Positions 12,538-36,617 of a stretch of 64,000 bases of DNA are shown here, one piece after another. The DNA is from Deltaproteobacteria bacterium RBG_16_64_85. GTDB lineage: Bacteria > Desulfobacterota > Deferrimicrobia > Deferrimicrobiales > Deferrimicrobiaceae. The stretch covers positions 3,669 through 67,668 of the forward strand of contig MGQW01000072.1 of assembly GCA_001798885.1 (NCBI GenBank), in the 5' to 3' direction. The translations under genes and the position numbers were made by a program. The notes beneath the pieces are model-generated. The model was not told the origin of the DNA, did not search any database, and saw only the letters and a list, made by a program, of their open reading frames with translations. Numbering within the stretch: position 1 is the stretch's first letter; each line of letters begins with the position of its first letter.

Positions 12538-14901
12538 ATGAATGTCAACTTGAAGCCCTCTTCCGACAAAAACAGGGACGCAAAGCCTTCGGGCGGCCCG
12601 CTGTTTCCCGAGCTCCTGGCTCCAGCGGGCTCCGTGGAGGCGTACTTCGCCGCGGTATCGGCGGGGGCGGACGCGGTCTACCTCGGCCTCCAGAAGTTCA
12701 GCGCCCGCGAGCGGGCGGAGAACTTCACGCTGGAGGAGCTCTGCCGCGTCCTGCCGCACGCGCGGCAGCGCGGGGTTCGCGTCTACCTTGCGATGAACAC
12801 CGTCCTCACGGAGGCCGACCTCCCCGAGGCGATCGCGATGCTGCACCAGGCGGCGCCCCTTCTCCCCGACGCCGTCATCGTGCAGGACCTGGGCCTCCTG
12901 CGGATCGTGCGAGAGTTCTTCCCCGGGATCTCTCTCCATGTCAGCACGCAGGCAGGGTGCGCCTCGGCCGCGGCCGCGGGGGAATTCGCCCGACTGGGAG
13001 CGGAACGGGTGATCCTGGAACGCCACCTGCGGCTCGAGGAGGTGCGGCAGATCGTCGCCCGATCCCGGGTCGACGTCGAGATCTTCGTGCACGGCGCGAT
13101 GTGCTACTCCTATTCGGGGAAGTGCTTCTTCTCCTCCTATCTCGGGGGCAAGTCCGGCAACCGCGGGGCGTGCGTGCAGCCGTGCCGGCGCCTCTACGGA
13201 CATGAAGGGGGGGAGGAGGCGGTTTTTTCGACGCGCGACCTTTCCCTGGTCGATCTCCTCCCGGAGCTCGTCCCGCTGGGGTTTGCCGCCTTCAAGATCG
13301 AAGGGCGGATGCGAAGCGCGGAGTACGTCGCCGGCGTGGTGTCCGCCTACCGGACCGCACTGGACCTCATCCGCTCGGGAAAGCCCGCGGAGGGTGTCGC
13401 AGAGGGAAGGAAGATCCTGTCCGAAGTGATCGGCCGGGAAGAAACGCGGGGGCTCACGGGGGGGGCGTTCCCCGGCGAGGTCGTCGCGGGGGGAAGCACC
13501 GGGAACGTGGGGGAACTGCTGGGCGCCATCCGCGAGGTTCGCGACGGGTGGGCGTTTCTCCCCGGAGAGGTGCCTGTTTCGCGGGGAGACCGGCTCCGGG
13601 TGCAGTTCCAGAGCGACGGCTCGGGGAAGGGCTTCACGGCGCTTTCGATGAGGGCCGATCCGCGCGGCTTCTACGTGACGGTTCCTTTCCCCGTTTCCCC
13701 GGGGGATCTCCTGTTCCGCGTGGGAGGCGGAGGACGCGCGGAGATCACCCGCCAGGCCAGGAAGGAAATGGATGCGATCCGGCCGGAGGGGGCGCGCTTC
13801 CACGTTGTCGTCGGGGAGACGGTCGTCGCCGTCGAAGCGGCTTACGGGAGGGTGAAGCAATCGTTCTCCTTCCGTATTTCGGGAGGGAGGGACTCCGCGG
13901 GGAGCAGGCTTCCACCCGACGCCGAAGGAAAGCTGGCGGCCGTCTACCACTGCGACCTCCCGCTGGGGGAGATCCGCGTCGAGGGGCACGGCGCCGGGGT
14001 TTCCTGGCCCGACGTGGAGGCCCTGTTCGTCAAGGCCGCCCGGAAGTTCGACAAGGATTTCTATCTCGCAGGAAAGGAGCTGCGCCTCTCCATCCTCCCC
14101 GCGCTCCGTGTGGCGGGGAACCGACAGGAGAAGATTCCGGCGGTTTTCTTTACCGGCTGCCGGGCCGACCAGCTGGCGTACCTTCCCGCGGGAGAAGAGA
14201 TCGTTCCCGTTGTGGAATTTTCCCGCGGGCTCGCGCGGGATCCCTCTCCGGCCGGCCAGGGAGCGTTCCGGAACCGGGCCTACCTCCGGCTGCCGGCGCC
14301 CTTCCTGGAGGCCGACGCCGCGTTTCTCCGGCGGACCGTCAAGGAAGCGGTCCGAAAGGGGCACCGGCGATGGGTGGTTTCCGACGTCGGCCATTTCGGG
14401 CTATTCTCCGGGTTCGACCTGCGGCGGGAAGTGACCCTGATCAGCGATTCCTACCTGTATGCCTTCAACATGGGGGCGCTGTCCGTCCTGTCCCGGATGG
14501 GCGCTTCGCGGATGGTCCTCCCCATCGAGGCGCCGCTTTCCTCCCTCCGGGCGGTGGGAAAATATCTGCACGGGCTGGGAATCGCGGTGGCCTACGCATC
14601 CATCCCCCTCATGATTTCCCGGCTGGTCCCCGCCGGTGGGGTCCGGGGAGGGGAAGTCGTGAGTCCGAGGGCGGAACGGTTCACCGTCGAGGTGGACGAA
14701 CGGGGTTCGACCCTCCGGCCCGTGCGGCCGTTCTCCGCCTCCGGGGCCCTGCACGAGATCCGCGCCGCGGGGATTCAGGATTTTTACGTGGACGTGCGGC
14801 ACGTTCCCCCGCAAGAGATCGGGGCGATCTTTATCGCACTGCGGGAGGACCGGAAGATCCCCGATGCGTCCACCTTCAACCTCTTCCGGGGTAATTTCTG
14901 A
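12538..14901 (+). CDS. U32 family peptidase-like protein (long, two-lobed form with Fe-S Cys motif)
   Basis: ATG 12538 inside ORF 12451..14901 (avoids overlap with lemA). ELLAPAGS...ADAVYLG N-terminus and CYSYSGKC-x15-C-VQP-C cysteine cluster. Confidence 0.85.
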   Translation: MNVNLKPSSDKNRDAKPSGGPLFPELLAPAGSVEAYFAAVSAGADAVYLGLQKFSARERAENFTLEELCRVLPHARQRGVRVYLAMNTVLTEADLPEAIAMLHQAAPLLPDAVIVQDLGLLRIVREFFPGISLHVSTQAGCASAAAAGEFARLGAERVILERHLRLEEVRQIVARSRVDVEIFVHGAMCYSYSGKCFFSSYLGGKSGNRGACVQPCRRLYGHEGGEEAVFSTRDLSLVDLLPELVPLGFAAFKIEGRMRSAEYVAGVVSAYRTALDLIRSGKPAEGVAEGRKILSEVIGREETRGLTGGAFPGEVVAGGSTGNVGELLGAIREVRDGWAFLPGEVPVSRGDRLRVQFQSDGSGKGFTALSMRADPRGFYVTVPFPVSPGDLLFRVGGGGRAEITRQARKEMDAIRPEGARFHVVVGETVVAVEAAYGRVKQSFSFRISGGRDSAGSRLPPDAEGKLAAVYHCDLPLGEIRVEGHGAGVSWPDVEALFVKAARKFDKDFYLAGKELRLSILPALRVAGNRQEKIPAVFFTGCRADQLAYLPAGEEIVPVVEFSRGLARDPSPAGQGAFRNRAYLRLPAPFLEADAAFLRRTVKEAVRKGHRRWVVSDVGHFGLFSGFDLRREVTLISDSYLYAFNMGALSVLSRMGASRMVLPIEAPLSSLRAVGKYLHGLGIAVAYASIPLMISRLVPAGGVRGGEVVSPRAERFTVEVDERGSTLRPVRPFSASGALHEIRAAGIQDFYVDVRHVPPQEIGAIFIALREDRKIPDASTFNLFRGNF

Positions 14902-23679: not shown

Positions 23680-26208
23680 CTATGGAGCTACGAATTCCAG
23701 CGACAGCTGCGGCACTGTGACACCCGCCACGCCGCGCGGCTCCCTGATCGACCCGCCCATCGCGATGAAGTGGCTTCTTGCCGTGTCGGAATCGTGGCAA
23801 TGACCGCACGCCGATGTCGCCGGCGTGTTCACCAGGTCGGTGGCGTTCGGCACGCTGGCCCGGGCCGCGTTGATATTAGCCGCGGTATTATCCGCGCCCG
23901 TAGTGGTTTTCGCGGTAGTCAGAAAACGGCCGGTCGTCTGGATGTTCTGGTACAGGTTGTTCAAGTGGCACTTCCCGCAGTGGGTCAGGTCGCCGGGAAA
24001 GGCGATCTCGTCCCCTTGGAGGAGGACGCCGTCCAGGCGGTTGCGGATGTCCACGAAGTTGGTGGTCCGCTTGGCGGCCCCGTGCAGCCCGTGGATCAGC
24101 TCCTTGAAGTTGTTGGAGACTTCGGGGTACTGCAGCGGATTGCTCCCGAAGAGGGCCACGATGTCGGGGTTGATCGGGCTGGCCGTGATGGTGCGGCCGC
24201 TGGAGGACAGGTTGGGGTTGTGGCACATCACGCAGACCTGCGCGTTGCTGACGCGGTTCCCGCCGTGCCCCTCGAAGATCTCGTGGCACTCCAGGCAGCC
24301 GACCGGCGTCCCGGTAATCGGATTGTTGCTGTTGGTGTAACCGCTCTCGACGGCCACGCGGCGGACCCGGTCGCCGGTGACCGGTTTCACGACCGAGAAG
24401 GTGTGGCGGCCGACGTTATCCAGTCCAGGGATGCCATCCACGTCCGCCCCGTTGGTCTGGGTGAAATACCCCTGGAGGGCGACCGCCCGCATTTGCGCGC
24501 CGACCGGGAACGCGTTCGCCCTCTGTACCGAATATTGCGTGAACCCGACGTTGTCGAACGCGACGATCGGCAGGCCGATGATGGAGAGACTCTCCGGCTG
24601 CCCCGCGGTCCTGCCGAGGTTGTTGTAGTCAAGGGGTTCTGCGACCCCGTCCTGCGGCAGCGCATAGGCGAACAGGAAGCTCGGGCCGCCGCTGAAACCG
24701 CTGGGACGGGTGATCGTGGTGCTGCCGAGATTCACGAAAGCGCCGTCCTTCTTGATCCAGAACTTGATCGTCGCCACGTTGGTGCCCTCGTCCACCGTGA
24801 CGTTGTCGATCCCGTACTCGAAGCTTACCAGCGTGCCGGGAAGCTGCGGGTTGTTGGGCGTCGCGTTCTCTGTGGCGTGGGCTTCCTTTATGGCAAGCAG
24901 CGTACCCGATGGCGGATGGCAAAAAACGCAATTGGCGTCAGTCGTTTGGATGCTGCCTATGCCGTGACCGCCGCCGGTCGCGAAGTTGACGTTGACGTGG
25001 CAAGAGCCGCACCCCGTGCGCGTCGGCCGGTTCTGCCAGTTGGCGTAGGTGTTGTCGGCATCCGTCCCCTGGTGGCACCTCGTGCAGTTCCGGATGTCCT
25101 GGGGATAGGTCACCTCGCTGAAGTTGCCGAGTTCGCCGATATTCTGGACGAGGCCGGGGGTGTTGGGGGTGTGGTTGTGGATCTTGTGCACGAGGTTGAC
25201 CAGGTTGGCGTTATCCCAGCCCCCGCCGGCCGGGTTGCCGGCGATCTCGAGCTTGGCATTGTGGCAGATCTGGCAGAACTTGTATTCGCGGCGGCCGCCG
25301 CCGTGGATCGCCAGCGGGTCGTGGCACACGTTGCAGGCTGAGGTGGAGACGTCGTTCTTGGCGGGATACGCGCCCGGCGCCGGAATCGCACCCGTCCCCC
25401 CGCCGACCGGGGGCACCACGTCCAGGAATGCGTTCGCGGCCGGCCTTCTGCGGGACGTCGTGTGGTAGTACGTGTCGGTCGTGAAGAGATTGAGAGTTGC
25501 CGTATTGAGCGTATTGGGATTTCCTATTGAAAACTGTGTTCCCGCCCGCACGAGCACGTTATCGGCGTAACCGTCCGAAACGCGGACGGCGGTGGTCGGG
25601 AAGGTATAGGAGTAGACGCCGGTGGCGGGAGTTCCGGTAAAGACCGCTCCGGCGGCTCCGTCGGGCCGGTTCGCTCTGAAGGGCCCGCTGCCGCTCGCCC
25701 CGGGGGTTAACACGAAGCCGTTCCACTCGTCGGCGCCCCCGTTCGTGCCGGGAACCATCTTGGCGAGGAGGAACGACACGAAGGCGAGATTGTCATTGAT
25801 CCCGGAGCCGGACTTGGTACGCAGGTCGATGCTGGGGGTGATGTCGACTCCGTTGGCGTCGCTCGCAGCGAAGGTGAAGTTCACCGTTACGGGAACGTTG
25901 TCCCCGCTGGGCGCGCCGAAGTCGACGGAAGTGATGGTGATCGTTGCGGAACCGGTGGGCAGGGGGTTCCCGGTCGTCGGGTTGAGGCGGTGCATCGCGT
26001 GGACGCTGAACGGTTGCCCCGCGGAGTGGCAGAGGAAGCAGGTCTCATTCGACTGGAGCGCCGGCCCGGGACCGCCGGGAGGACCGGGAGGGCCGGCGGC
26101 GCCGGGAGCGCCGGGAGCGCCGGCGGCGCCATCCGAACCGCTGCATCCGAAGAACAGGAGCGGCACGATCAGCGAGAAAAGCCCTAACCATAAAAGCGTC
26201 TTCCTCAT
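23680..26208 (-). CDS. decahaem c-type cytochrome lipoprotein (outer-surface type)
   Basis: 842-aa ORF. Lipoprotein signal ...LLFFGC, a Gly/Ala/Pro linker, and 10 CXXCH motifs (CFLCH, CNVCH, CQICH, CTRCH, CGSCH, CVFCH, CLECH, CVMCH, CGKCH, CGHCH). Confidence 0.9.
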   Translation of the reverse strand: MRKTLLWLGLFSLIVPLLFFGCSGSDGAAGAPGAPGAAGPPGPPGGPGPALQSNETCFLCHSAGQPFSVHAMHRLNPTTGNPLPTGSATITITSVDFGAPSGDNVPVTVNFTFAASDANGVDITPSIDLRTKSGSGINDNLAFVSFLLAKMVPGTNGGADEWNGFVLTPGASGSGPFRANRPDGAAGAVFTGTPATGVYSYTFPTTAVRVSDGYADNVLVRAGTQFSIGNPNTLNTATLNLFTTDTYYHTTSRRRPAANAFLDVVPPVGGGTGAIPAPGAYPAKNDVSTSACNVCHDPLAIHGGGRREYKFCQICHNAKLEIAGNPAGGGWDNANLVNLVHKIHNHTPNTPGLVQNIGELGNFSEVTYPQDIRNCTRCHQGTDADNTYANWQNRPTRTGCGSCHVNVNFATGGGHGIGSIQTTDANCVFCHPPSGTLLAIKEAHATENATPNNPQLPGTLVSFEYGIDNVTVDEGTNVATIKFWIKKDGAFVNLGSTTITRPSGFSGGPSFLFAYALPQDGVAEPLDYNNLGRTAGQPESLSIIGLPIVAFDNVGFTQYSVQRANAFPVGAQMRAVALQGYFTQTNGADVDGIPGLDNVGRHTFSVVKPVTGDRVRRVAVESGYTNSNNPITGTPVGCLECHEIFEGHGGNRVSNAQVCVMCHNPNLSSSGRTITASPINPDIVALFGSNPLQYPEVSNNFKELIHGLHGAAKRTTNFVDIRNRLDGVLLQGDEIAFPGDLTHCGKCHLNNLYQNIQTTGRFLTTAKTTTGADNTAANINAARASVPNATDLVNTPATSACGHCHDSDTARSHFIAMGGSIREPRGVAGVTVPQLSLEFVAP

Positions 26209-26320
26209 CTTTTCCTCCTTTGGTCTGGTTGGTTGTTAACAACGGTGAAGCATGACAATCGATAACGGGTCCGCGCCCGCGCGCACGACATATTGAGGTC
26301 CTCCTGCCCGTCGATGGGAA

Positions 26321-26349
26321 AGCCCCCGCCGGAGCGGGGGCTTTTTTTC
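26321..26349. terminator. GC-rich hairpin between the 12-haem and 10-haem genes
   Basis: AGCCCCCGC-cgga-GCGGGGGCT. The T-run is on the plus strand and the A-run on the minus, so for the minus-strand operon it is at best a weak or partial terminator or a processing site. Confidence 0.4.
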
Positions 26350-26371
26350 GGATCCTTTCCTGCCGGCCCGG

Positions 26372-29278
26372 TCACGGCCGGGTGAGCAACGTGGGCGTGC
26401 CTGCGGCGGCCGGGTCCAGGTCCCGGATGGAGTCGTAGAGAAGCTGGAGGACGTACCTCGGGTTGTGCACGTAGCCGCACGGCTCCTTCTGGACGACCTG
26501 GTAGTTGTAGGCCGCCCGGAGCAGCTTGGCATCGAAGACGTTGTACCGGTTTGCGAAGACCGCCTCGTTCGCGTCGACGTTGCCGTTCCCGTTGTTGTCC
26601 TTGAACCAGTATGGGTATGTTGCCGGGTCGTAGGCGATCTGCGCCGGCCGGTTCGCCGCCGCATACGCCTGGATGGCAATCAGCAGCCGGTTCACGACGT
26701 TGTCGGTGCCATTGACGCCGGTGCCCCAGATCTCACGGTAGATCCCCTCGGTTACGTTTCCGTTCCCGTTGTAGTCGGTCCCCCCCAGTGGAGGGAACCT
26801 GATCGACCGGAAGCGGGCCGCATCGGCGGCGTTGTCCGGCACCGGGACCGACAGGTGGCAGACCGCGCAGTACTCCGTCTTCGGAAACATCGTGTGGTTG
26901 TTCTCGTTCAGGTCGGCCGTCCTGCCCATGTGGCACTCGATGCACGTGTCGCGGGCGGGGGTGTGGACGAGCCTTCCCGAGTAGACCTGGTTGTCGTATT
27001 CGTAGCCGCCCCTGACCTCGGTGCCGAAGAAGGTCGCCGCGGCGGCGAAATAGTGGATGTTGATGAACGTCAGGTTGTTGATCGAGTTGTCCAGGGGATC
27101 GTTCGCGATGGCGGTGTCCACCTGGACCTTGGAGGCCTGGCCCTGGTGGCAGACCATGCACAGGTTGCTGGCATCGGCCAGGGTCTTCCCTACCCCTGAG
27201 GGGAAGACCACGTTGTCGAGCGCGTCGCCGGCGGCGCGCCGGGCGTACCGCGTGGTCCCGTCGCCGTCACTGCTGTGGCAGGCGGCGCAGGAGATCTTGC
27301 TGCCCAGCTTGGCGGAGGTGTTGACGACCCCGTCCTTCACGAAGTCGATGTAGCCGTACTTGCTATGGCACTTGGCGCAGGAGGTCGGAATGGACCCGTC
27401 CACGTCCCAGTGGCGGAACGGCTCGCCGGTGAAGTCGGCGTGGCCCGACCTCGACCATTCCGCGAGCGGCTTGACGTACTTGGGACTCGCGGGGTCGTTG
27501 CTGTGGCACGGGGTCGTGCCGTAGCAGGAGCTGACCATCGCGGCGTTCACCTTGAGCTGCCCGTTGTCGTAGGCCACGACGTTCACGCTGGGCCAGATGA
27601 TGTTGAACGAGTGATTGTGGATGTCCCCTTCCTGCAGCCCGAGCCCGAAGGTCTTGCGGATCGCCGATGAGGAGGTTTTGGGCATGTGGCAGGTCGAGCA
27701 CCGGCCGACGCCGGTCCCCTCAGGGTCGTAGGGAGCCTGGGCCATGACGGCCTCTTCTCCGATGTGCCGGACCACCGCGGTCCGGACGGCGGCGGGGTTG
27801 GACTTGACGTCGTTGGGCGTCAGGCTGAAATCGTCAGCGTGGCAAGCGAGGCACAGGCTGTTGTCGGAATCCTTCGTCGCGAACGTCACGCCATCCCGGG
27901 TGACGGAATCCTTGATCTGGTGGTCGTCTCCGGGGTTCGCCTTCGGGTTCCCAGCTGCTTTATGCGGATTGTGGCATCCCCAGCAGGTGGTGTCGGTGCT
28001 CTTGTCGGGCCCGTGCGGCCCCTGCTCCAGGTCGGTCCACGCCTGGTGGTGCTGCAGGGATGCGATGTACTTCGGAAAGTTGTATCCCAAGTACCAGTTC
28101 CGGTATGCCGTATAAATGCTCAGCGTGGGGGACGCGGCGCCGTAGTATGCCGTCGTTGTGTTGAGGATGACGAAGGGATTTCCCGCGGAGTTGTCGATCG
28201 AACTTTCGCCCGGGAACGGGAACGTAAGGACGCCCCCGACCAGGCGGGCCGGGAACTCGAGGTTGAGCGACATCCCCGCCAGCGTGGCGTTCCCCTCGCC
28301 GCGCTGGTGGCAGTTGCCGCAAACTTGGTCGGCGAGCCGGATGCCGGCGACCCCGAGGCGCTCGAGATTCGCGGGATTGGTGATGAAGGCCGGGTTCCCG
28401 CTGCTGTTCACGTGCTGGGCGCCCGGCCCATGGCAAGCCTCGCACCCGATGTTGAGCTCGACGTAGCCGGAGACGACCTCGGAGACGTTGGCGCCGGCGT
28501 ATGCCTGGGTCTGGGAGGCGAGGGACAGCCCGGTCTGGTGGCAACCCGCGCACCGGTTCTCCCAGGACCTCGCCGTCCCCAGCTTGGTCGCCGTCGCGTT
28601 CAGCGCGCCGAACTGGGCGACCAGGTTGTCGGTGCCGTAGGCCTGCGTGTACCGGGGGGTGTTCGTCCCGCTGTACCAATGGGTGGCGTTGTACGCCTCG
28701 TACTTTTTCGTGACCTCGTTGTACTGGACGGGGGAGATGTAGTAGCTCTTGCCGACCTTGGTGTGGTACCGTTGCTTCCAGTACCCGTTTCCGCCCTGCG
28801 TCCTCTGGACCTCGAACTCCACGCCGGCGATGCTGATGATGTGCTTCCCGTTGACGATTTTGAGGATCGGTGCGTTGGGGCGGCTGTTCTTCAGGGCGGT
28901 CCCGTTCGCGTTCGCCTCGATGAGGCTGTCGGTGGCAGGGCTGTTGAAGTCGAGCGTGTCCTTGAAGTCGTCCTGCCCGTTCCCGTTCGCGTCGTTGACG
29001 AAGATGGCGTCGCCAAGCTCGGCCACGGTCTTCAGCGGCGCGTTGTGGAGCGACTTCGACCAGCCGGTGAACTGGTCCGGGTGGCAGTTCTTGCACGCTT
29101 CCGAACCGATGTAGCCGCCGGCGGCGGCGAGGGCCGGGTCTCCCTTCTGGACCGTCCCCGTCGGGGTGACTCCCGGACCGATCGCCCCTTCGCGGTTCCC
29201 GGACCCGCCGCAACTGGCCAGGAGGGCCAGAAGGAGAAAACTTGCGGTGACGGTGATGTGCATTCCGATCCTTTTCAT
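26372..29278 (-). CDS. dodecahaem c-type cytochrome lipoprotein
   Basis: ATG 29278 (GGAGGG upstream) inside ORF 26372..29317. Signal ...LLALLASCGG. 12 CXXCH motifs plus one C-YGTTP-CH. Confidence 0.9.
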   Translation of the reverse strand: MKRIGMHITVTASFLLLALLASCGGSGNREGAIGPGVTPTGTVQKGDPALAAAGGYIGSEACKNCHPDQFTGWSKSLHNAPLKTVAELGDAIFVNDANGNGQDDFKDTLDFNSPATDSLIEANANGTALKNSRPNAPILKIVNGKHIISIAGVEFEVQRTQGGNGYWKQRYHTKVGKSYYISPVQYNEVTKKYEAYNATHWYSGTNTPRYTQAYGTDNLVAQFGALNATATKLGTARSWENRCAGCHQTGLSLASQTQAYAGANVSEVVSGYVELNIGCEACHGPGAQHVNSSGNPAFITNPANLERLGVAGIRLADQVCGNCHQRGEGNATLAGMSLNLEFPARLVGGVLTFPFPGESSIDNSAGNPFVILNTTTAYYGAASPTLSIYTAYRNWYLGYNFPKYIASLQHHQAWTDLEQGPHGPDKSTDTTCWGCHNPHKAAGNPKANPGDDHQIKDSVTRDGVTFATKDSDNSLCLACHADDFSLTPNDVKSNPAAVRTAVVRHIGEEAVMAQAPYDPEGTGVGRCSTCHMPKTSSSAIRKTFGLGLQEGDIHNHSFNIIWPSVNVVAYDNGQLKVNAAMVSSCYGTTPCHSNDPASPKYVKPLAEWSRSGHADFTGEPFRHWDVDGSIPTSCAKCHSKYGYIDFVKDGVVNTSAKLGSKISCAACHSSDGDGTTRYARRAAGDALDNVVFPSGVGKTLADASNLCMVCHQGQASKVQVDTAIANDPLDNSINNLTFINIHYFAAAATFFGTEVRGGYEYDNQVYSGRLVHTPARDTCIECHMGRTADLNENNHTMFPKTEYCAVCHLSVPVPDNAADAARFRSIRFPPLGGTDYNGNGNVTEGIYREIWGTGVNGTDNVVNRLLIAIQAYAAANRPAQIAYDPATYPYWFKDNNGNGNVDANEAVFANRYNVFDAKLLRAAYNYQVVQKEPCGYVHNPRYVLQLLYDSIRDLDPAAAGTPTLLTRP

Positions 29279-29306
29279 GTAGAAACCCTCCGTCGGTGGA
29301 TATCGG

Positions 29307-30044
29307 TTAAAAGTCATGGCAGACCCGGCACGAGCGGTTGTTGCTCTTGGACCGGATGCGGTTCGCCTTGAAATCCTTCGGATGCGGGTTGACGCGCAGG
29401 TTCCCCGTCCTGGCCGAGTGGCAGGTGAGGCAGACGTCCCCCTCGGGATGGCACGACTGGCACGACGCCAGGTTGCGCCTGGCCTCGGCGGCGTGCCCGT
29501 CCGGGAAGGAGGCGGTGTACCGCTGCCCCGACGGGGCGCTCAGGTTGTGGTCCTTGACCGACCGGTTGGCGAGCCCAAGCCGCGTGTGGCAGTTCGAGCA
29601 GAATTGCTGCTCGTGGCAGCGGGCGCACTGCTGCTGGTTCGTCTGGGCCTGCATCGGGTGGATGGAGACCCAGTCGCTGCGGTGGCTGTCGGGCTTGATG
29701 TCCCGCTTGTACTGGCTCCGGGAGAGATTCGCGTTGATGCCCCCGCCCTTGTGGCAGTCCTGGCATGTCCCCTGGTCGTGGCATTCAGCGCAAAGGGCGT
29801 CGGGCCGCGATGCGAGGACCCGGTGCTCCTTGTCCCAACCGCTGCCGTGGTTCGGCTGGATCCCGGAATCCTTGTGGCATTCGGCGCATTCGGGGAGCTT
29901 CAGCTCCCGGTAGGCCTTGTGGTCCTCCCGGCCGAACGCCGTGACCGCGATCATGACCGCCGGGAGAAGGATCAGGAAGATGCGAATCAGCGGATTTTTC
30001 AAGTGTCTTTCCTCCTCTATCGACCGGGCGTCAGAAGCGTACAT
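29307..30044 (-). CDS. periplasmic octahaem c-type cytochrome
   Basis: 245-aa ORF with an N-terminal hydrophobic segment and 8 CXXCH motifs (CAECH x2, CQDCH, CARCH, CSNCH, CQSCH, CLTCH, CRVCH). Its start overlaps the porin-like gene stop by 14 nt. Confidence 0.9.
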   Translation of the reverse strand: MYASDARSIEEERHLKNPLIRIFLILLPAVMIAVTAFGREDHKAYRELKLPECAECHKDSGIQPNHGSGWDKEHRVLASRPDALCAECHDQGTCQDCHKGGGINANLSRSQYKRDIKPDSHRSDWVSIHPMQAQTNQQQCARCHEQQFCSNCHTRLGLANRSVKDHNLSAPSGQRYTASFPDGHAAEARRNLASCQSCHPEGDVCLTCHSARTGNLRVNPHPKDFKANRIRSKSNNRSCRVCHDF

Positions 30045-31290
30045 CCAAGGCGACCCGTCCCGAGAATTCGTTCTCGGACTGGCGGGTCACCTTGTCTTCC
30101 ACCCGGAGCCTGGCGGTCATGTTCTTCCGCACCTCGTACGATCCCCCCGCCCAGTACTTCTTCGCCGAGAAGTCGTCCGTCATCGAATCCCTCTGGAAGA
30201 CGTCGTAGGCGACCCCCGCTGCGAGGTTTGCTTTCTTGAAGGTGTAGTCGGCCGAGAGGTCGAGGCCGGTCAGGTCCCCGGGGTATCCCCGGCGGACGTC
30301 CACGGCCGCCCGGATCCCGAGCCCCTCGACCTGCTTCGGACGGAACCGGGCGCCCAGGGAGCCGATGTCCGCCGTCGGGCCTTCATAGTCGGCCCGGGTG
30401 TAGGAGCCGAAGAGGGTCACCTGGGGAGTGACGATGTAATCCACCCGCCCCAGTACTTCCTTGTACCGTGTGACCGCAAAGACCGTGAAGATCGAGTCGG
30501 CGTCGAAGTTGGGGTACGACTGGAAGTACTCCCCCGTGATCGTGAGCAGGCTGGTGAAGGGGATGAGCTTTACGCCCGCGAGGAGCTCGCTGCTGGCCTC
30601 GTGCAGGATGTCGTAGCGCCAGTCCACGTAGGCCTTCGCCTTCTTGTAGAATCCCTGGTCGGCGTGGACTCCCAGCATCTCCCGGACAATGTCGGTATCG
30701 TTGTACTTCCGCAGGTAGCTCAGCTCGATATTCGTGTTGTGGAGGACCGTCCCGTCCTTGAGGAACGACGCGCCCGCCGAGGCCCCGAGGAGGAAGTCCC
30801 CGGCCCGGCTCAGGTCGGTGGTTTCCCGGAACCGCACGTCGTACCCGGCGAAGGCCGAGAGCGCCACGGGACCCAGGTTGCGTGCGTCGACCCTGACGCC
30901 GTCGATCGTCCCCGCACCCGCGCCCACGACGACGAATTGCCGCCCCAGCCGGATGTCCCCGCGGCTCCCCGGAAGGGCGTAGTTCACGTAAAGGTAGTAG
31001 AGCCGGCCCAGGATATCGTCCGAGTCGCTGAAGACTCCATCTTGGCCGGCGCCGAGCTGCTTGGAGACCCGGCCGTACCCAAAGGCGCTGAACCGGCCGG
31101 CGTTGTCGATCGCCGTCGCGCCGATCTTGAGGTACTCCACGACGTCGCTCTGGTTTTTATCCAGGAACGGGTCGTTGTACCAGAGGTACTGCGTCGAGCT
31201 CTGGAACCGGACGTCCGCCGCGCGGGCCGGCCCCGGAGCCAGGAAGAGAAGGAGAAGCACGACGGGGAAGAGCCATCTCTTTCCTTTCAT
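30031..31290 (-). CDS. porin-like outer-membrane beta-barrel protein (no haem motifs)
   Basis: 419-aa ORF. Signal peptide ending PARA-AD, alternating hydrophobic pattern rich in Y/G/D/R, C-terminal ...ALDVRF. First gene of the cytochrome operon. Confidence 0.75.
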   Translation of the reverse strand: MKGKRWLFPVVLLLLFLAPGPARAADVRFQSSTQYLWYNDPFLDKNQSDVVEYLKIGATAIDNAGRFSAFGYGRVSKQLGAGQDGVFSDSDDILGRLYYLYVNYALPGSRGDIRLGRQFVVVGAGAGTIDGVRVDARNLGPVALSAFAGYDVRFRETTDLSRAGDFLLGASAGASFLKDGTVLHNTNIELSYLRKYNDTDIVREMLGVHADQGFYKKAKAYVDWRYDILHEASSELLAGVKLIPFTSLLTITGEYFQSYPNFDADSIFTVFAVTRYKEVLGRVDYIVTPQVTLFGSYTRADYEGPTADIGSLGARFRPKQVEGLGIRAAVDVRRGYPGDLTGLDLSADYTFKKANLAAGVAYDVFQRDSMTDDFSAKKYWAGGSYEVRKNMTARLRVEDKVTRQSENEFSGRVALDVRF

Positions 31291-31297
31291 TACGCCC

Positions 31298-31423
31298 CTA
31301 CCTCCTGTTGGTGTGAACGCGGAATGCGCGCTGAAAGCGGAAGAGTGAAGATCCTTTTCCGGCAGGATGTGCTGACCTTCGACGGTTATCGTCGACGATG
31401 GCGAGTACTTTCTTTTGTGGCAT
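31298..31423 (-). pseudogene. relic of a response-regulator 5' end / 41-codon upstream ORF ending 7 nt before the porin ATG
   Basis: MPQKKVLAIVDDN... matches MPQKKVLVVDDDN of the REC-PilZ gene at 36281 and then diverges. The TAG lies inside the porin RBS region (aacAGGAGGTAGgggcgtaATG). Confidence 0.5.
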
Positions 31424-31436
31424 GTCGCTTTATGCT

Positions 31437-31451
31437 AGCAAGTTGTATGCC
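31437..31451 (-). promoter_or_regulatory. sigma-54-type -24/-12 element upstream of the Pcc operon
   Basis: The minus strand reads GGCATacaacTTGCT, against consensus GGCAC-N5-TTGCW, with correct GG-to-GC spacing. About 135 nt upstream of the porin ATG. Conserved in copy B. Confidence 0.5.
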
Positions 31452-31546
31452 CTGAAAGAGAAGGATGCACCTAACTATAATTACTTGAAAAACAAGAAGT
31501 TAGCAATTCATCAGGCGATGCGGAAATGCCGGTTGGTTGAAATGGT

Positions 31547-31579
31547 GGGCAAATTCCCGATCGGCTTGGGGATTTTCCC
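31547..31579 (-). promoter_or_regulatory. candidate enhancer (UAS): two 12-bp imperfect palindromes 21 bp apart
   Basis: On the minus strand, GGGAAAATCCCC and GGGAATTTGCCC with a start-to-start distance of 21 nt, about 100 to 140 nt upstream of the -24/-12 element. An A/T-rich tract lies between them and the promoter. Conserved in copy B. Confidence 0.4.
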
Positions 31580-31866
31580 GTACGGCCCCTAGATCCATCC
31601 AAGGTGTTGCACTTGTACATGAATTCCTCTTCGAGGAAAGCAAGACCGCGCCCCCGGCCCGGGATTCTTCTCCGTCCATCCATAGGGGTGCGTGAACCCT
31701 TGCCGCGAGAAAATAAGTGCCCCGATGGGGTTTATGAAGGGCTAAAATAAAAAAATATGCCGTTCCGGACGCCAACCATCCCAAAGACCGCTTTTTCCCG
31801 GATAGGCGAGGAGATAAGAGGGCGCGATCCCACCGGCACCCAGCGGATGGGAACGCGTCGAAAAAA

Positions 31867-32769
31867 ATGAAGCGCTGGTTGATCCTTTCGATGTGCTTGC
31901 TGGCCGTTTCAGGTTGTTCCCGGGAGGAAAAACCGTCTCAGGCGAAGGTCCCCCCGCGGGAACAATTCCTGATCGGGTTGATTCCCGAGCTGAACATCTT
32001 CAAGCAGCTCGAGCGGTACGAGCCCATGGCCGGTTATCTCTCCGGGAAAACAGGCTTGAGGGTCACGCTGAAAATCTTCCCGCGGTACGGGAACATCATC
32101 GACAATTTCCGGCTGGCGGGGATGGACGGCGCCTTTTTCGGAAGCTTCGCCTACGCGCTGGCCCACGCGAAGCTGGGCGTGGAAGTCCTCGCGCGCCCGT
32201 TGGCTCTCGACAACGCTTCGACCTACCACGGGTTGATCTTCGTGAGGAAGGACAGCGGGATAAAAACCTTCCGGGACATGAAGGGGAAGCGGTTCGCCTT
32301 CGTGGACAAGGCGACGACCGCCTACCTTCTCACGCGTGCGTACTTTCATTCTCACGGGATATCGAATTGCAAAGTATACCTGGGGGAATGCTATTTCGCC
32401 GGGACGCACGAGGACGTCGTCTTCGACGTGCTCAATAACAAGGCCGATATCGGAGCCGCCAAGAATACCGTTTTCAACCGGCTCGCGAAGGCGGACCCCC
32501 GGATTGCGAACGAGCTGGTGATCCTGGAAAAATCCCCCGAAGTGCCGGAGAACGGCCTCGCCCTCCGGAAGGAGATCGACGAATCCTTGCGAATCCGGAT
32601 GAGGGATACGCTGCTGAACATGCACCTGGATCCGGAAGGGAAGAAGGTGCTGGAGCAGTTCGGTGCGCAGAAATTCATCGAAACCGCGAACGCGGATTAC
32701 GCCATCGTCGTGAAGTATGCGGAAGAGATCCACCAGAACCTCGCCACTTACGACTACATCAACGACTGA
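31867..32769 (+). CDS. PhnD-like (phosphate/phosphonate type) periplasmic substrate-binding lipoprotein, orphan
   Basis: 300-aa ORF with lipobox LLAVSGC. Type-2 SBP-like sequence. No permease or ATPase gene nearby. Its stop overlaps the kinase start (TGATG). Confidence 0.75.
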   Translation: MKRWLILSMCLLAVSGCSREEKPSQAKVPPREQFLIGLIPELNIFKQLERYEPMAGYLSGKTGLRVTLKIFPRYGNIIDNFRLAGMDGAFFGSFAYALAHAKLGVEVLARPLALDNASTYHGLIFVRKDSGIKTFRDMKGKRFAFVDKATTAYLLTRAYFHSHGISNCKVYLGECYFAGTHEDVVFDVLNNKADIGAAKNTVFNRLAKADPRIANELVILEKSPEVPENGLALRKEIDESLRIRMRDTLLNMHLDPEGKKVLEQFGAQKFIETANADYAIVVKYAEEIHQNLATYDYIND

Positions 32770-34220
32770 TGAAAAGAAAGATCGTCCTAGGACTAACCGT
32801 TTATTCCGTTGTCTTCCTGCTGGCCGGCGTGTACGTCGTCCACACCATCCGCACCGCCACGGCGGATCTCGACCGGCTGATCACGCTCCACCAGGTGGAA
32901 ATCCTGCGGGAGCACTATCTCGTCCAGATCCAGCGGATCCAGACGGATCTGACCCTGAAGGACACGAGCCACGAGAGGACGTTCGATACCGTGTTCCGCA
33001 ATATCGTCAACATGGGGGACATCATCGATACCTGCTTCGACTGCCATCATTCCGAGCAGGGGACGGAAAGGCTCAAGGAGCTGAAGAGGCGGACGAAGGA
33101 GTACAAGGAGGGCCTGAGCAGGGTCCTGACCATTCGCGCCAACCCCTCGCGGCTGAAGGCGGAGGCGGAGGCTGCCTTCCAGGTCGGGGAGGAGCTGACC
33201 ACAAGAGTCCGGGACATGATCGACATCACGACCTCCCGGCTCGGGGAGATTACCAAAAAGGCGATGAACAGGATCGAGCTCACCAAGAACATCCTCTACG
33301 GGCTCGTGGCGCTTGGTCCATTGGTATCCGCGTTCCTCGGGTTCATCTTCATCTCGGGACTGACGCGCCCCGTCAAGGTCCTGCTGGAGTCCACCCGGAA
33401 GCTGAAAGGCGGGGATCTGGAGCACCGCGTGGAGGGGCTGAAGGACGAGTTCGGCGAGCTGGCCACCTCGTTCAACGAGATGGCGACTTCCCTGAAGGAG
33501 CAGATGTTGAAGATGCAGCGCACGGAGAAGATGGTGATCGTAGGCGAGCTGGCGGCGGGGCTGGCCCATGAGATCAAGAATCCGCTCGCGGGAATCAAGG
33601 TGGCGATGCAGGTCCTGTCCGAAGAAGCCGGCCTGTCCGAGGAAGACCGGGGGGTTGTAAAGAAGGTGGGCCAGGAGGTCGCGCGACTCGAATCGCTGAT
33701 GAAAAACTTCCTGAACTTCACCCGGCCGGCGAAACCCCAGATGTCGGAACTGAACGTCAACAACCTGATCAATACCATCCTCACCTTCTACGTGAAGAGC
33801 CGGTCGATCTCGCCGGGCCGACCCGACGGGATCCGGATCGAGAAGGATCTTCAACCGCTTCCGGACACGATGGCCGACCCGATGCAGCTGCAGCAGATTT
33901 TCCTGAACCTCGTCCTGAACGCCCTCGACGCCATGCCGGGCGGAGGGACACTGGGAGTCCGGACGTTCCTCGAAGAAGGGTCCGACCTCATCCATATCGA
34001 GATCTCGGACACGGGCAGGGGGATCAGTGATGAGAACGCCGACAAGATCTTCCAGCCGTTCTTCACCACCAAGCCCAAGGGGACCGGGCTGGGGCTCGCG
34101 ATCTCCAGGCAGTTGATCGAGCAGCACGGAGGCTCCATAACGGCAACAGGGAAACCGTCCGGCGGAACCGTATTTAAAATTCAACTGCCCCTGAAAACCG
34201 CTGCCGGGTCGACGGCATGA
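32769..34220 (+). CDS. sensor histidine kinase with periplasmic CXXCH (haem-c) motif, HAMP, HisKA and HATPase domains
   Basis: 483-aa ORF. TM1 at residues 5-24, TM2 around 178-200, CFDCH at residues 89-93 (nt 33033..33047) between them. HEIKNPLAGI H-box, plus N and G boxes (DTGRGI, GTGLGL). Confidence 0.9.
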   Translation: MKRKIVLGLTVYSVVFLLAGVYVVHTIRTATADLDRLITLHQVEILREHYLVQIQRIQTDLTLKDTSHERTFDTVFRNIVNMGDIIDTCFDCHHSEQGTERLKELKRRTKEYKEGLSRVLTIRANPSRLKAEAEAAFQVGEELTTRVRDMIDITTSRLGEITKKAMNRIELTKNILYGLVALGPLVSAFLGFIFISGLTRPVKVLLESTRKLKGGDLEHRVEGLKDEFGELATSFNEMATSLKEQMLKMQRTEKMVIVGELAAGLAHEIKNPLAGIKVAMQVLSEEAGLSEEDRGVVKKVGQEVARLESLMKNFLNFTRPAKPQMSELNVNNLINTILTFYVKSRSISPGRPDGIRIEKDLQPLPDTMADPMQLQQIFLNLVLNALDAMPGGGTLGVRTFLEEGSDLIHIEISDTGRGISDENADKIFQPFFTTKPKGTGLGLAISRQLIEQHGGSITATGKPSGGTVFKIQLPLKTAAGSTA

Positions 34221-35608
34221 AGACAAAAGGCCGTGTTTTCCTCCTGGACGACGACGACCTCATCGTATCCATGCTTGCGAGGGCGTTGAAGGGCGAGGGG
34301 TACGACGTCCAAGCGGAAACCGATCCGGGCGAGGCCGTCGAAAAAATTCGGTCGTTCTCCCCCGACATCGTCATGCTCGACCTCAAGCTGCCCGGCATCA
34401 GCGGGATGGACATCCTGAAGGAGATCACGAACCAAAGGATCGGGACCCAGGTGGTGATGCTGACGTCGGACGACAGCGCGGAAAGCGCGGTGAAGGCGAT
34501 GAAATCAGGGGCTGTGGATTACCTGACCAAGCCCTTCGACATGGACCTGGTCAAGATCGTCGTCGCATCGATCGTGGAGAAAGGGAACCTGAAGCAGGAG
34601 GTCGAATACCTCCGGAAGATCAGCTCCGACCTGGTTTACAACGAGATCATCGGGGGTACCGGGGTCGTCAAGAAGTTGAAGGAGAAGGCCGAGAAGCTGG
34701 CGCAGGCCGGCGTTCCCTCGGTGCTGATCACCGGGGAAAACGGGACCGGCAAGGAGATGTTCGCGAGGTACATCCACCACGCGATGCACGGCGAGGGTCC
34801 CGGCGGGTACGCGCCGTTCGTCGGGGTGAATTGCGCCGCGATTCCGGAGTCCCTCATCGAGAGCGAGCTCTTCGGCCACGAAAAGGGGTCGTTCACCGAC
34901 GCCAAGACGGAGAAGAAGGGCGTCTTCGAGCTGGCCTCCCAGGGGTCCATCCTCCTGGACGAGATCGGGGAGATGAAGCCGAACCTCCAGGCCAAGCTCC
35001 TCCGGGTGCTCGAGGAGAGGAAGGTGCGGCACGTGGGGGGGAAACACGACATCCCCATCGACGCGACCGTGTTCACCACCACCAATCGGAACCTCGAGGA
35101 GGCGGTGGAAAAGGGGGAGTTCCGGATCGACCTGTATTACCGGCTGAACGTCTTTTCCCTGCACATCCCCCCGCTCCGGGAGCGGCAGGAAGACATCCTT
35201 CCCCTCGCGCGGTATTTTCTCGAATTTTTCTCCACAAAGTACAATCGTTCGGCCATCAAGGGCTTTTCCCCGGAGGCGGAGAAGCTCCTGCTCTCCTACG
35301 GCTGGCCGGGAAACGTGAGGGAGCTCAGGAACGTCGTCGAAAGGATCGTCGTCCTGGAGAGCGACGAGAGGGTCCTCCCCGATCATCTCCCGAAGGAGAT
35401 CCTGTTCGGGAAAGGGGGTGCGAGAACGGTGTCCGCAGGCTCCGGAATCACCCTCCCCGATGCGGGACTGTCGCTCGACGATGTGGAAAAAAGCCTCATC
35501 CTCCAGGCGCTCGAGAAAACCGGGGGCAACAAGACCCAGGCTGCGAAGCTCCTGGGCGTCACGTACGACTCCCTCCGCTACCAGATCAAGAAGTTCGGGC
35601 TGGAGTAA
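34217..35608 (+). CDS. sigma-54-dependent response regulator (NtrC/Fis family enhancer-binding protein)
   Basis: 463-aa ORF. REC domain, AAA+ with GENGTGKE Walker A, ESELFGHEKGSFTDA (GAFTGA-type loop), C-terminal Fis-type HTH. ATGA overlap with the kinase gene. Confidence 0.9.
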   Translation: MKTKGRVFLLDDDDLIVSMLARALKGEGYDVQAETDPGEAVEKIRSFSPDIVMLDLKLPGISGMDILKEITNQRIGTQVVMLTSDDSAESAVKAMKSGAVDYLTKPFDMDLVKIVVASIVEKGNLKQEVEYLRKISSDLVYNEIIGGTGVVKKLKEKAEKLAQAGVPSVLITGENGTGKEMFARYIHHAMHGEGPGGYAPFVGVNCAAIPESLIESELFGHEKGSFTDAKTEKKGVFELASQGSILLDEIGEMKPNLQAKLLRVLEERKVRHVGGKHDIPIDATVFTTTNRNLEEAVEKGEFRIDLYYRLNVFSLHIPPLRERQEDILPLARYFLEFFSTKYNRSAIKGFSPEAEKLLLSYGWPGNVRELRNVVERIVVLESDERVLPDHLPKEILFGKGGARTVSAGSGITLPDAGLSLDDVEKSLILQALEKTGGNKTQAAKLLGVTYDSLRYQIKKFGLE

Positions 35609-35609
35609 G

Positions 35610-36281
35610 TCAGCAGGAAAGGAACTTCAGGCCCGCCGTGACGCAGTCCTGGGCAGTGGCGACCCACACCACTTCGGCGGTGGCTTCCGGAGGGACGAGT
35701 TTCAGAACCGGATCGTTTCCGGCGGCGACATGGGCCCGGACGCCTTGTCCCACTCTCAGGGGATATTCCGTTCGAAGCCTTAAGCCCCCCGTACCGACAT
35801 CCACAATCTGGCCGCTCAGGTTATGAAGGTCGTACTGGGCTTCTTCGGGAGCGGGCTCTAGGATCGAGATGCGCAGGGGGATGCGGCAGATGTGCCTCGC
35901 ATGTTTCCTTTTCTGTGCGTATTCGCCGGTGCTCTTCAAAATGCCGTGAACCTCGGAGAGGTCGAACGGCTTCTCCAGGAATTGCACCGCCCCGCCGTTG
36001 TAAGCGCGTTGCCGGTTCACTTCGCTGGCGTCCCCGCTCATGATGATCACGGTTGCGCCCGGCGAGATCTTGTCGATCTCCTCGAGGATCTCGAAACCGC
36101 TCATGTCCGGCAGGTGAATGTCGAGGAACACGTAATCGAAACGCTGCCTGCGAAGCTCGGCGAGCGCATCCGCTGCGTTTCCGACGATACAGGTATCGAG
36201 ATCCAGGCCAGTAAAGTCTTTTTCAAGCGCCCAGCAGATCAGGTTATCGTCGTCGACGACGAGCACTTTCTTCTGTGGCAT
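35610..36281 (-). CDS. response-regulator receiver + PilZ domain protein
   Basis: ATG 36281 inside ORF 35610..36353. VLVVDDD...FLDIHLPDMSG receiver motifs. C-terminal RKHAR (RxxxR) and DVGTGGLRL (DxSxxG-like) PilZ motifs. Confidence 0.8.
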   Translation of the reverse strand: MPQKKVLVVDDDNLICWALEKDFTGLDLDTCIVGNAADALAELRRQRFDYVFLDIHLPDMSGFEILEEIDKISPGATVIIMSGDASEVNRQRAYNGGAVQFLEKPFDLSEVHGILKSTGEYAQKRKHARHICRIPLRISILEPAPEEAQYDLHNLSGQIVDVGTGGLRLRTEYPLRVGQGVRAHVAAGNDPVLKLVPPEATAEVVWVATAQDCVTAGLKFLSC

Positions 36282-36294
36282 GTCGCTTCCTACC

Positions 36295-36309
36295 AGCAAG
36301 TTGCATGCC
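36295..36309 (-). promoter_or_regulatory. sigma-54-type -24/-12 element upstream of REC-PilZ gene
   Basis: The minus strand reads GGCATgcaacTTGCT. Only 13 nt separate the motif from the ATG, so the transcript would be nearly leaderless. Uncertain. Confidence 0.35.
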
Positions 36310-36404
36310 CAGAAAGAGGAGGATGCGCCTAACTGCAATTCCTTTGAAAACAAGAAGTTTGCAATTCATCCGACGATGCCGCAATACCGGTTGGTGGACA
36401 TAGT

Positions 36405-36437
36405 AGGCAAATTCCCACTCGGCTTGGGGATTTTCCC
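36405..36437 (-). promoter_or_regulatory. candidate enhancer palindromes, copy B
   Basis: On the minus strand, GGGAAAATCCCC and GGGAATTTGCCT, 21 nt start-to-start, at the same relative position as in copy A. Confidence 0.35.
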
Positions 36438-36617
36438 ATACGGCCCCTCGTCCATCCAAGGCATGGCACCAGAAAAGATCCAGGAGCCCCCTCTCCGAAA
36501 CGGTTGATTTCGGCGCCCGGTTTGCGTATCCTGATACGGCTTTCCGCCAGGGATACCGCCGGCAGAATCCGCACCGCAATAACCGATAGAACACTCAACT
36601 TGGTGAGGAGGACGCAC

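Follow-up and report, generated by a model that had tools for sequence, protein, structure and literature searches.

Promoters of the NtrC-glnAp2 type carry tandem dyad activator sites some 100-150 bp upstream, often combined with a bend at a site for integration host factor (IHF), and the classical cases have ordinary leaders. In Geobacter sulfurreducens the sigma-54 response regulator BccR is encoded divergently from, and is required for, the electron-transfer cytochrome operon cbcBA (doi 10.1101/2021.04.15.440034), and in the AioXSR and ArxXSR systems a periplasmic PhnD-like sensor, a histidine kinase and a sigma-54 activator control arsenite oxidase genes (PMC5908839, PMC6011840). Porin-cytochrome clusters are themselves duplicated in tandem in G. 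sulfurreducens, as ombB-omaB-omcB and ombC-omaC-omcC, and a separate regulator gene goes with each (PMC4282303). Here we analyse a stretch of 64,000 nt (the window; positions are counted from its first letter) from Deltaproteobacteria bacterium RBG_16_64_85, an uncultured iron-cycling groundwater bacterium, in which a sigma-54-type promoter block occurs twice, once in front of a gene for a REC-PilZ signalling protein (copy B) and once, together with the first codons of that gene, in front of a porin-cytochrome conduit cluster (copy A). The comparison with related loci makes it likely that the sigma-54 promoter of the signalling gene was duplicated along with the gene start and was captured by the conduit operon.

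Two copies of a sigma-54-type promoter block

The two copies lie on the minus strand at 31382-31612 (copy A) and 36241-36469 (copy B) and had been named collinear paralogs in an earlier account made from the letters of the window (the sequence-only reading). Alignment with MAFFT bore this out and placed the limits of the homology at ~31612 and ~31382, a repeat search returned 31384-31590 and 36242-36448 as an ungapped direct repeat of 207 nt with 85% identity, the copies being 4858 bp apart, and BLASTN gave 229 nt at 84.3% identity (E=2e-67); the repeat is far above chance expectation. Both blocks are 100% identical across 20 independent assemblies of the same population (Rifle aquifer metagenome-assembled genome GCA_001798055.1), and between them they bracket the sensor operon and the REC-PilZ gene. 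The order of the elements is common to both copies: GGGAAAATCCCC, 9 nt, GGGAATTTGCC(C/T), an A/T-rich tract (the core of the block has 31% G+C versus 64% for the window) and GGCAT-N5-TTGCT, with ATG CCA CA(A/G) AAG AAA GT 14 nt past the latter. Copy A holds all of these elements and the first 13 codons of REC-PilZ, joined upstream of the porin leader.

The element GGCAT-N5-TTGCT, in the register of TGGCAC-N5-TTGCW, has its sole two matches in the 64 kb at 31437-31451 and 36295-36309 (0.22 expected), which were not counted as independent because they are paralogous, and the relaxed pattern GGCAY-N5-TTGCW also finds just two, GGGCATACAACTTGCT at 31437-31452 (minus strand; GG at 31451-31450 and GC at 31439-31438) and GGGCATGCAACTTGCT at 36295-36310. 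The two 12-bp palindromes of the sequence-only reading are present with the proposed distance of 21 nt from start to start. Upstream activator site 1, GGGAAAATCCCC, is found at 31568-31579 (minus strand, centre at about -148 from the predicted start) and again in copy B at 36426-36437; site 2, GGGAATTTGCCC, which is an inverted copy of site 1 and reads GGGAATTTGCC(C/T) over both copies, begins 21 bp after site 1 at 31547-31558 (minus strand, centre at about -127) and has its counterpart at 36405-36416. Within the A/T-rich tract that separates the activator sites from the promoter, an IHF-like site AAACAAGAAGTTA with one mismatch to WATCAANNNNTTR occurs at 31490-31502 on the plus strand; it is present in every A copy, and there are seven such matches in 128 kb (the window with both strands counted). 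Judged by this match, IHF might bind there. With the usual sigma-54 geometry and the C of GC at -12, transcription from copy A is predicted to start at about 31426 (31424-31428, minus strand), 3 nt before the ATG of the relic reading frame, and that from copy B at about 36284, the ATG of REC-PilZ lying at 36281. A simple sigma-70 scan of the minus strand predicted no sigma-70-like site from the block to the porin gene.

The REC promoter is conserved across phyla

A scan with the activator protein, restricted to one genome per species, gave 80 loci (coded L### below; 786 kb of loci were compared in total), about 25 of which encode an activator that is 56-82% identical and come from Deferrimicrobiaceae, Acidobacteriota, Nitrospirota and unclassified 'Deltaproteobacteria'. 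These loci have in common the layout of binding protein, kinase, activator and a convergent REC or REC-PilZ gene. In 23 of 26 loci, drawn from several phyla, TGGYAY-N5-TTGCW lies no more than 130 nt upstream of REC, and it is preceded by a pair of 12-bp dyads that reads GGTGAAATCACC-N10-GGTGATTTCACC in Nitrospirota, GGTAATATCACC / GGTGTTATCACC in L023 and GGGAAAATCCCC / GGGAATTTGCCC in the clade of the window. A regular expression for the dyad pair matched, in the 786 kb, at REC promoters and at copy A only. A pattern scan of metagenomes for the palindrome pair returned, among the matches listed, mostly unrelated low-complexity sequence; the relevant ones were L115, L125, L191, L207, L209 and L213. 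The comparison supports the enhancer-binding-protein layout proposed by the sequence-only reading, with the -24/-12 element at 23 of the 26 orthologous REC loci and a palindrome family that in the 786 kb is confined to such promoters and copy A.

The main reason to regard the palindromes as binding sites of the activator, and the -24/-12 element as real, is that activator and site family are inherited together across phyla. Given its orthologs in L191, L207, L209, L225 and L226, copy B is, on this comparison, the native and ancestral REC-PilZ promoter. Pairwise, the A and B copies share 82-93% identity, and the single promoter copy of L226 (REC-PilZ 83% identical) is 71-75% identical to each of them.

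Bacteria of this group typically encode many sigma-54 activators, and the promoters might be real but served by another enhancer-binding protein encoded elsewhere in the genome, the more so as the binding of the adjacent activator to the palindromes is a prediction. We consider this highly unlikely, as the activator and the palindrome-type REC promoter travel together across phyla and through rearrangements, and the palindromes drift with the activator lineage (GGTGAAATCACC in Nitrospirota, GGGAAAATCCCC, of the same site family, here). A paper on the Desulfovibrio sigma-54 regulome does not mention a PhnD-type system (PMC4641369).

The block is repeated, conserved and non-coding, and gene callers annotate an antisense open reading frame (ORF) in many assemblies, so that one might think of a riboswitch or other structured RNA, a gene for a small protein on the other strand or a mobile repeat instead of a promoter. 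That the block is any of these is extremely improbable: the 64 kb contain no more than two copies, and copy B has a fixed orthologous position across phyla, unlike a mobile element. Rfam gave nothing meaningful, either for the whole window at gathering thresholds or for both blocks at E-values up to 10, and an RNA element was rejected after RNAalifold found compensatory changes in 0 of 45 pairs and an unfavourable covariation term. The hypothetical protein of 64 aa (or 56 aa) annotated publicly on the plus strand at 31398-31592 was dismissed as a spurious call, its ORF being broken in all other copies of the block.

Probable capture of the promoter by the conduit cluster

Copy A is retained in six related lineages, at a position divergent from the binding-protein gene. 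It is present in synteny in L103/L104 (porin 89% identical), L105/L106 (87%), L115 and L125, and L225 (genome GCA_040961535.1; REC-PilZ 87%, porin 66% identical) has the full layout of the window with both copies. Two outgroups have a different arrangement. The conduit cluster of L021 (porin 79% identical) has no block, and its two-component system is found elsewhere in the same genome with one promoter copy (L226, the sensor operon with REC-PilZ; L021 and L226 are separate contigs of GCA_040960215.1), and L023 (activator 82% identical) has the REC promoter only. This presence and absence of copy A dates the duplication to the time between the split from the L021/L226 and L023 lineages and the divergence of the window, L103, L105, L125 and L225.

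The recipient can be recognized as well. The ancestral porin leader with its AGGAGG Shine-Dalgarno sequence (31291-31353, minus strand) also occurs in relatives without the block and is 86.5% identical to that of L021 over the last 52 nt; L021 shares the last ~165 nt of the leader with L103-L106, and the window keeps the last ~64-90 nt, up to a junction at about 31354. The sequence upstream of the shared leader in L021 comprises a further MtrC-like gene, a G+C hairpin plus T-run, and TTGATA-16-GATAAT, which resembles a sigma-70 promoter. In L022, a more distant relative, we observed sigma-54-like elements, TGGTGTAATTATTGCG upstream of the conduit porin gene and TGGCATGGGCGTTGCT with TTGCCAAAATGGCAA-type dyads upstream of an MtrC-like gene (7891-7906, 13480-13583); the element of the MtrC-like gene adjoins an IS3-like fragment, and a homologous binding-protein gene lies downstream of the cluster.

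The longest junction is that of L225. Here the block runs on through 13 relic codons into ~30 nt, GCAGAAGGTCAGCCCATCCTGCCGGAAAAG, which the window and L125 have as well, and then through ~20 nt more into a long porin leader of the L021 type, from which 29 nt of the ancestral leader are absent. Relative to this version, the window lacks ~118 nt, with CCGGAAAAG joined to GATCTTCAC, and L103-L106 lack 74 nt including relic codons 7-13, with AAAGTA joined to GAGGCG. These are three independent deletions, all of which left the promoter and the first six codons intact. As for the mechanism, we infer a tandem duplication of the promoter/REC-PilZ/sensor unit followed by internal deletion, because the direct repeats bracket exactly one such unit.

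The two copies also share genome-specific states that are not found in orthologs, namely GCATCC in the window (31462-31470 and 36320-36328) and GTCGAATG in L225 (5363+ and 10247+). The identity between A and B within L225 (88.9%) is higher than that between copy A of L225 and copy A of the window (84.2%). This suggests occasional gene conversion between two copies that are 4.9 kb apart.

Selective conservation in copy A

Variability was counted over eight copies (five A copies, of which those of L115 and L103 are practically alike, and three B copies, of which those of L207 and L191 are identical). Site 1 varies at 0 of 12 positions, site 2 at 1 of 12 and the -24/-12 element at 1 of 16, versus 4 of 9 in the spacer between the sites, 32 of 94 between the sites and -24, 6 of 10 from -11 to -1 and 28 of 30 in the left flank. 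Taken together, 2 of 40 positions are variable in the motifs and 50 of 124 in the rest of the core (Fisher p=9e-6). The A copies alone show the same picture, with the two sites at 0/24, the core element at 1/16 and 20-70% of the positions variable in flanks and spacers. Both promoters look functional, since the palindromes and the -24/-12 element are nearly invariant while about 40% of the spacer positions vary, and copy A is in our view probably the functional promoter of the conduit cluster, gene conversion being the caveat. The sequence-only reading had stated that the conduit operon is driven by this promoter and appears to have captured it from a signalling gene; the capture has gained comparative evidence, and the driving remains a prediction.

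We also weighed the possibility that copy A is a silent, decaying scar of the tandem duplication and deletion, with the conduit transcribed from another promoter or by read-through. The coding part of the relic is indeed decaying, the junctions and ORF lengths vary by lineage, the stretch from -11 to -1 differs between A and B copies, and a simple sigma-70 scan can miss non-consensus promoters. Such a scar is nevertheless quite unlikely, considering that the A copies of four to six lineages vary at 0/24 positions in the palindromes and at 1/16 in the -24/-12 element, that three independent deletions spared the promoter and at least six codons, that the segment holding the sigma-70-like promoter of L021 is gone, and that read-through is excluded by the divergent orientation of the upstream neighbour.

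Several points weigh against a captured and working sigma-54 promoter. The similarity between A and B (82-93%) is at about the level of orthologs, and recent gene conversion could account for part of the motif conservation in place of independent selection on copy A. The sigma-54 contact loop of the activator is GSFTDA, not the canonical GAFTGA; G(A/S)FTDA is conserved in all close orthologs, with F and T kept. A search for the RpoN box found none in the window or in the loci of close relatives, and among all compared loci found it in unrelated Anaerolineae only. Transcription that begins only about 3 nt ahead of the AUG is unusual at a sigma-54 promoter, and we found no direct precedent in the literature for a leaderless mRNA driven by sigma-54. 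Lastly, the orthologous copy A of L125 (1-1720, minus strand), which has 14 relic codons, is followed by an MtrC-family lipoprotein gene and not by a porin gene; the set of cluster genes behind the captured promoter varies by lineage.

A start codon next to the promoter

Another finding concerns the distance between promoter and gene. In both copies the -12 C (31438 in A, 36296 in B) and the ATG are separated by 14 nt, and the same geometry, in which the start codon lacks a Shine-Dalgarno sequence and lies 12-15 nt (mode 14) past the -12 C, recurs at 13 of 23 orthologous loci (L025, L026, L031, L035, L038, L039, L046, L052, L057, L058, L062, L225 and L226; in the window 36281-36310 and 31423-31452), which is far from a uniform distribution (binomial p=2e-14). 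The other orthologous loci mostly have leaders of at least 37 nt, several with a Shine-Dalgarno sequence of the AGGAGG type; L023 has 22 nt. There is no Shine-Dalgarno sequence in copy A, nor in copy B of L225. A Shine-Dalgarno-like GGTAGGAAG in copy B had been considered as a sign of a second, read-through mode of expression and was dropped, as it is absent from copy B of L225. For both the REC-PilZ mRNA and the copy-A transcript we predict a start about 3 nt before the AUG, that is, an mRNA of the leaderless type; for REC the prediction follows from this 14-nt geometry and from N-termini of the MKKILIVDD type, which leave no room for a downstream start.

The relic ORF of copy A (31298-31423, minus strand) has 41 codons, of which codons 1-13 (31385-31423) derive from REC-PilZ. 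As had been noted before, it retains the N-terminus of that protein (it begins MPQKKVLAIVDDN, compared with MPQKKVLVVDDDN, 11 of 13 residues matching), and its TAG falls within the Shine-Dalgarno sequence of the porin gene, AGGAGGTAGgggcgtaATG, with 7 nt left to the porin ATG. Should the leaderless prediction hold, ribosomes probably initiate at the relic AUG. Tentatively, and with more doubt than confidence, we propose that the duplicated unit is a self-contained 'sigma-54 leaderless cassette', with the -12 placed 14 nt before an AUG that is translated without a Shine-Dalgarno sequence, so that the relic ORF on the captured conduit transcript would be translated and ribosomes would be delivered to the porin start. 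A duplication of such a promoter must carry the AUG along, because promoter and start codon overlap functionally. If this holds, the design recurs in Deferrimicrobiaceae, Acidobacteriota and Nitrospirota, and sigma-54 promoters placed 14 nt from the start codon would, if confirmed, be a new class of leaderless transcripts.

Going one step further, the sequence-only reading had suggested that the relic ORF acts as a translationally coupled leader. This would be an addition to promoter capture, in which ribosomes load at the 5'-terminal AUG and couple to porin initiation, either by terminating at the UAG within the Shine-Dalgarno sequence, as in the window, or by continuing in frame, as in relatives. 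In its favour, the AUG and the first six codons are kept in each A copy, translation of REC-PilZ itself has to begin in the same AUG context with no Shine-Dalgarno sequence, and the frame is open from the relic AUG to the porin start in the window, in L103-L106 and in L225. As a conserved function the coupled leader found no support, and we regard it as unlikely: peptide, length and frame differ among relatives, with 23 codons in L125 (ending ~130 nt before, and thus far from, the next gene), 41 in the window and an in-frame extension of the porin of 59 codons in L103-L106 or 73 codons in L225. Moreover, the leader is nearly stop-free regardless, the porin gene has a strong AGGAGG of its own, and the predicted leader folds are no stronger than shuffled ones (z = -1.5, +1.0). 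The porin start region AGGAGGTAGGGGCGTAATG, with TAG and TAATG in two other frames, is identical in L021, which has no relic. Since the stops at the porin start exist there too, the geometry by which a ribosome from the relic AUG would reach the porin start was inherited and not evolved.

The reading frame of the relic ATG continues without stops into that of the porin ATG, over 177 nt in L103 (1330-1510) and L105 (3322-3500) and over 219 nt in L225 (10404-10623). Initiation there would put an extension of 59 or 73 aa ahead of the porin signal peptide. Selection for such open frames was considered and discounted, as the frames differ by lineage, the leader is nearly free of stops and the stops that exist predate the capture. 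For instance, the shared leader is read in different frames in L225 and L105, the indels of 74 and 29 nt offsetting each other, and two of the three frames of the L225 leader are open (9% of shuffles stay open).

Genes at the locus

The earlier gene assignments (the NtrC-type regulator at 34217-35608, REC-PilZ, the porin and the Pcc operon) hold. The first gene of the conduit cluster (30031-31290, minus strand) encodes a porin-like outer-membrane beta-barrel of 419 aa, for which AlphaFold2, run on an alignment of 29 sequences, gave a model with a signal helix and 22 strands (mean predicted local distance difference test, pLDDT, 85.9; predicted template modelling score, pTM, 0.74). The protein has no match in Pfam or NCBIfam; porin homologs at ~40% identity carry PF13609. 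It is followed on the same strand by an 8-haem cytochrome (29307-30044, 8 CxxCH motifs, only generic cytochrome c7 matches in Pfam and NCBIfam), a 12-haem lipoprotein cytochrome of 981 aa (26372-29317, 12 CxxCH motifs and a lipobox) and a 10-haem lipoprotein of the OmcA/MtrC family of 842 aa (23680-26208, 10 CxxCH motifs and a lipobox; TIGR03507 with 307 bits against a cut-off of 209, and Pfam MtrC domains). The lipoboxes of the outer cytochromes read LLASC and LFFGC. By this gene content the porin and the three multihaem cytochromes are a porin-cytochrome (Pcc-type) conduit cluster. Just past the lipobox of the OmcA/MtrC-family cytochrome, five tandem 9-nt units (26066-26130) encode a collagen-like PGAPGAAGPPGPPGGPGP linker, and the homologs in L021 and L125 have linkers of a similar kind. 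Between the genes for the 981-aa and 842-aa cytochromes there is a G+C-rich hairpin followed by a T-run (~26320-26350, minus strand); the last cytochrome gene may be transcribed as a unit of its own.

Divergent from copy A, the operon 31867-35608 (plus strand) encodes a PhnD/PtxB-type periplasmic binding protein (31867-32769, PF12974), a HAMP histidine kinase (32769-34220) and an NtrC/AtoC-type sigma-54 activator (34217-35608; PF00158 with E=1.6e-60, a Fis-type helix-turn-helix and REC), with overlapping stop and start codons. Compared with solved structures, the binding protein is nearest to PtxB (E=2.5e-30) and PhnD, followed by ArrX/AioX with 1e-14 to 1e-12. The REC-PilZ gene, the ancestral target of the promoter (35610-36281, minus strand; 223 aa, Pfam REC and PilZ), is convergent with the activator gene. 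The stop codons of the two are 1 nt apart (35605-35613), which leaves no room for a terminator, and the same holds for L023, L225 and L226. When induced, REC-PilZ would be transcribed on into the activator and kinase genes in antisense direction, which might provide feedback.

Proposed mechanism and comparison with known systems

In the model that we favour, the PhnD-type binding protein, the kinase and the activator would form a three-part sensor, whose phosphorylated activator would bind the two palindromes ~125-150 bp upstream. The A/T-rich, IHF-like tract would let the DNA loop, and the activator would open the sigma-54 holoenzyme at GGCAT-N5-TTGCT, with a start ~3 nt before the ATG. In the ancestor of the window clade the whole promoter and at least 13 codons of REC-PilZ would have been duplicated, and the duplicate would have landed upstream of the porin-cytochrome cluster, displacing the region that has a sigma-70-like promoter in the outgroup. 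Later deletions of differing size (118 nt in the window) would have shortened the junction by lineage. The conduit genes are probably under the control of the neighbouring sensor system and would be co-induced with REC-PilZ by the ligand of the binding protein, the presumed physiological signal.

The regulation of conduits in uncultured metal-respiring bacteria is little known, and this locus provides a testable wiring diagram, in which a PhnD-family sensor, a kinase and a sigma-54 activator would act on two promoters, that of a REC-PilZ gene of the cyclic di-GMP type and that of the porin-cytochrome genes. Promoter duplication is a known route by which regulons grow in evolution. Here it can be read with unusual ease: from relatives one can recover the donor promoter, the recipient leader and, in L225, an intermediate junction, the deletions that trimmed the junction can be traced by lineage, and the outgroup retains the displaced sigma-70-like promoter.

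The arrangement resembles BccR-cbcBA in that an activator with REC, AAA+ and helix-turn-helix domains is encoded divergently from a multihaem cytochrome operon with a -24/-12 promoter. The target there is an inner-membrane bc complex and here an outer-membrane porin-cytochrome cluster; moreover, the regulator of the present system is paired with a kinase of its own and with a periplasmic binding protein, and the predicted link arose by duplication of the promoter of another gene. With AioXSR and ArxXSR it shares the gene order, the PF12974 binding protein and the divergent respiratory operon with a sigma-54 promoter. The binding protein is nearer to PtxB/PhnD and falls outside the AioX/ArxX/ArrX subfamily, so the analogy is one of architecture only, and the conserved primary target is a REC(-PilZ) gene and not an oxidase. 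The omb-oma-omc clusters are alike in gene content, with a porin-like protein, a periplasmic 8-haem cytochrome, outer multihaem cytochromes and a local duplication; the duplicated unit here is a 230-bp promoter instead of structural genes, and a sigma-54 activator takes the place of OrfR/OrfS. Functionally, what the motifs predict is a standard enhancer-dependent sigma-54 promoter, in line with those of the NtrC-glnAp2 type in its two dyads two helical turns apart, its A/T-rich IHF-like spacer and its -24 GG and -12 GC, and different from them in a start codon 14 nt past the -12 C, a predicted 5' untranslated region of near-zero length and the absence of a Shine-Dalgarno sequence. What is new is this near-leaderless geometry, together with a clean reconstruction of the capture in an uncultured lineage.

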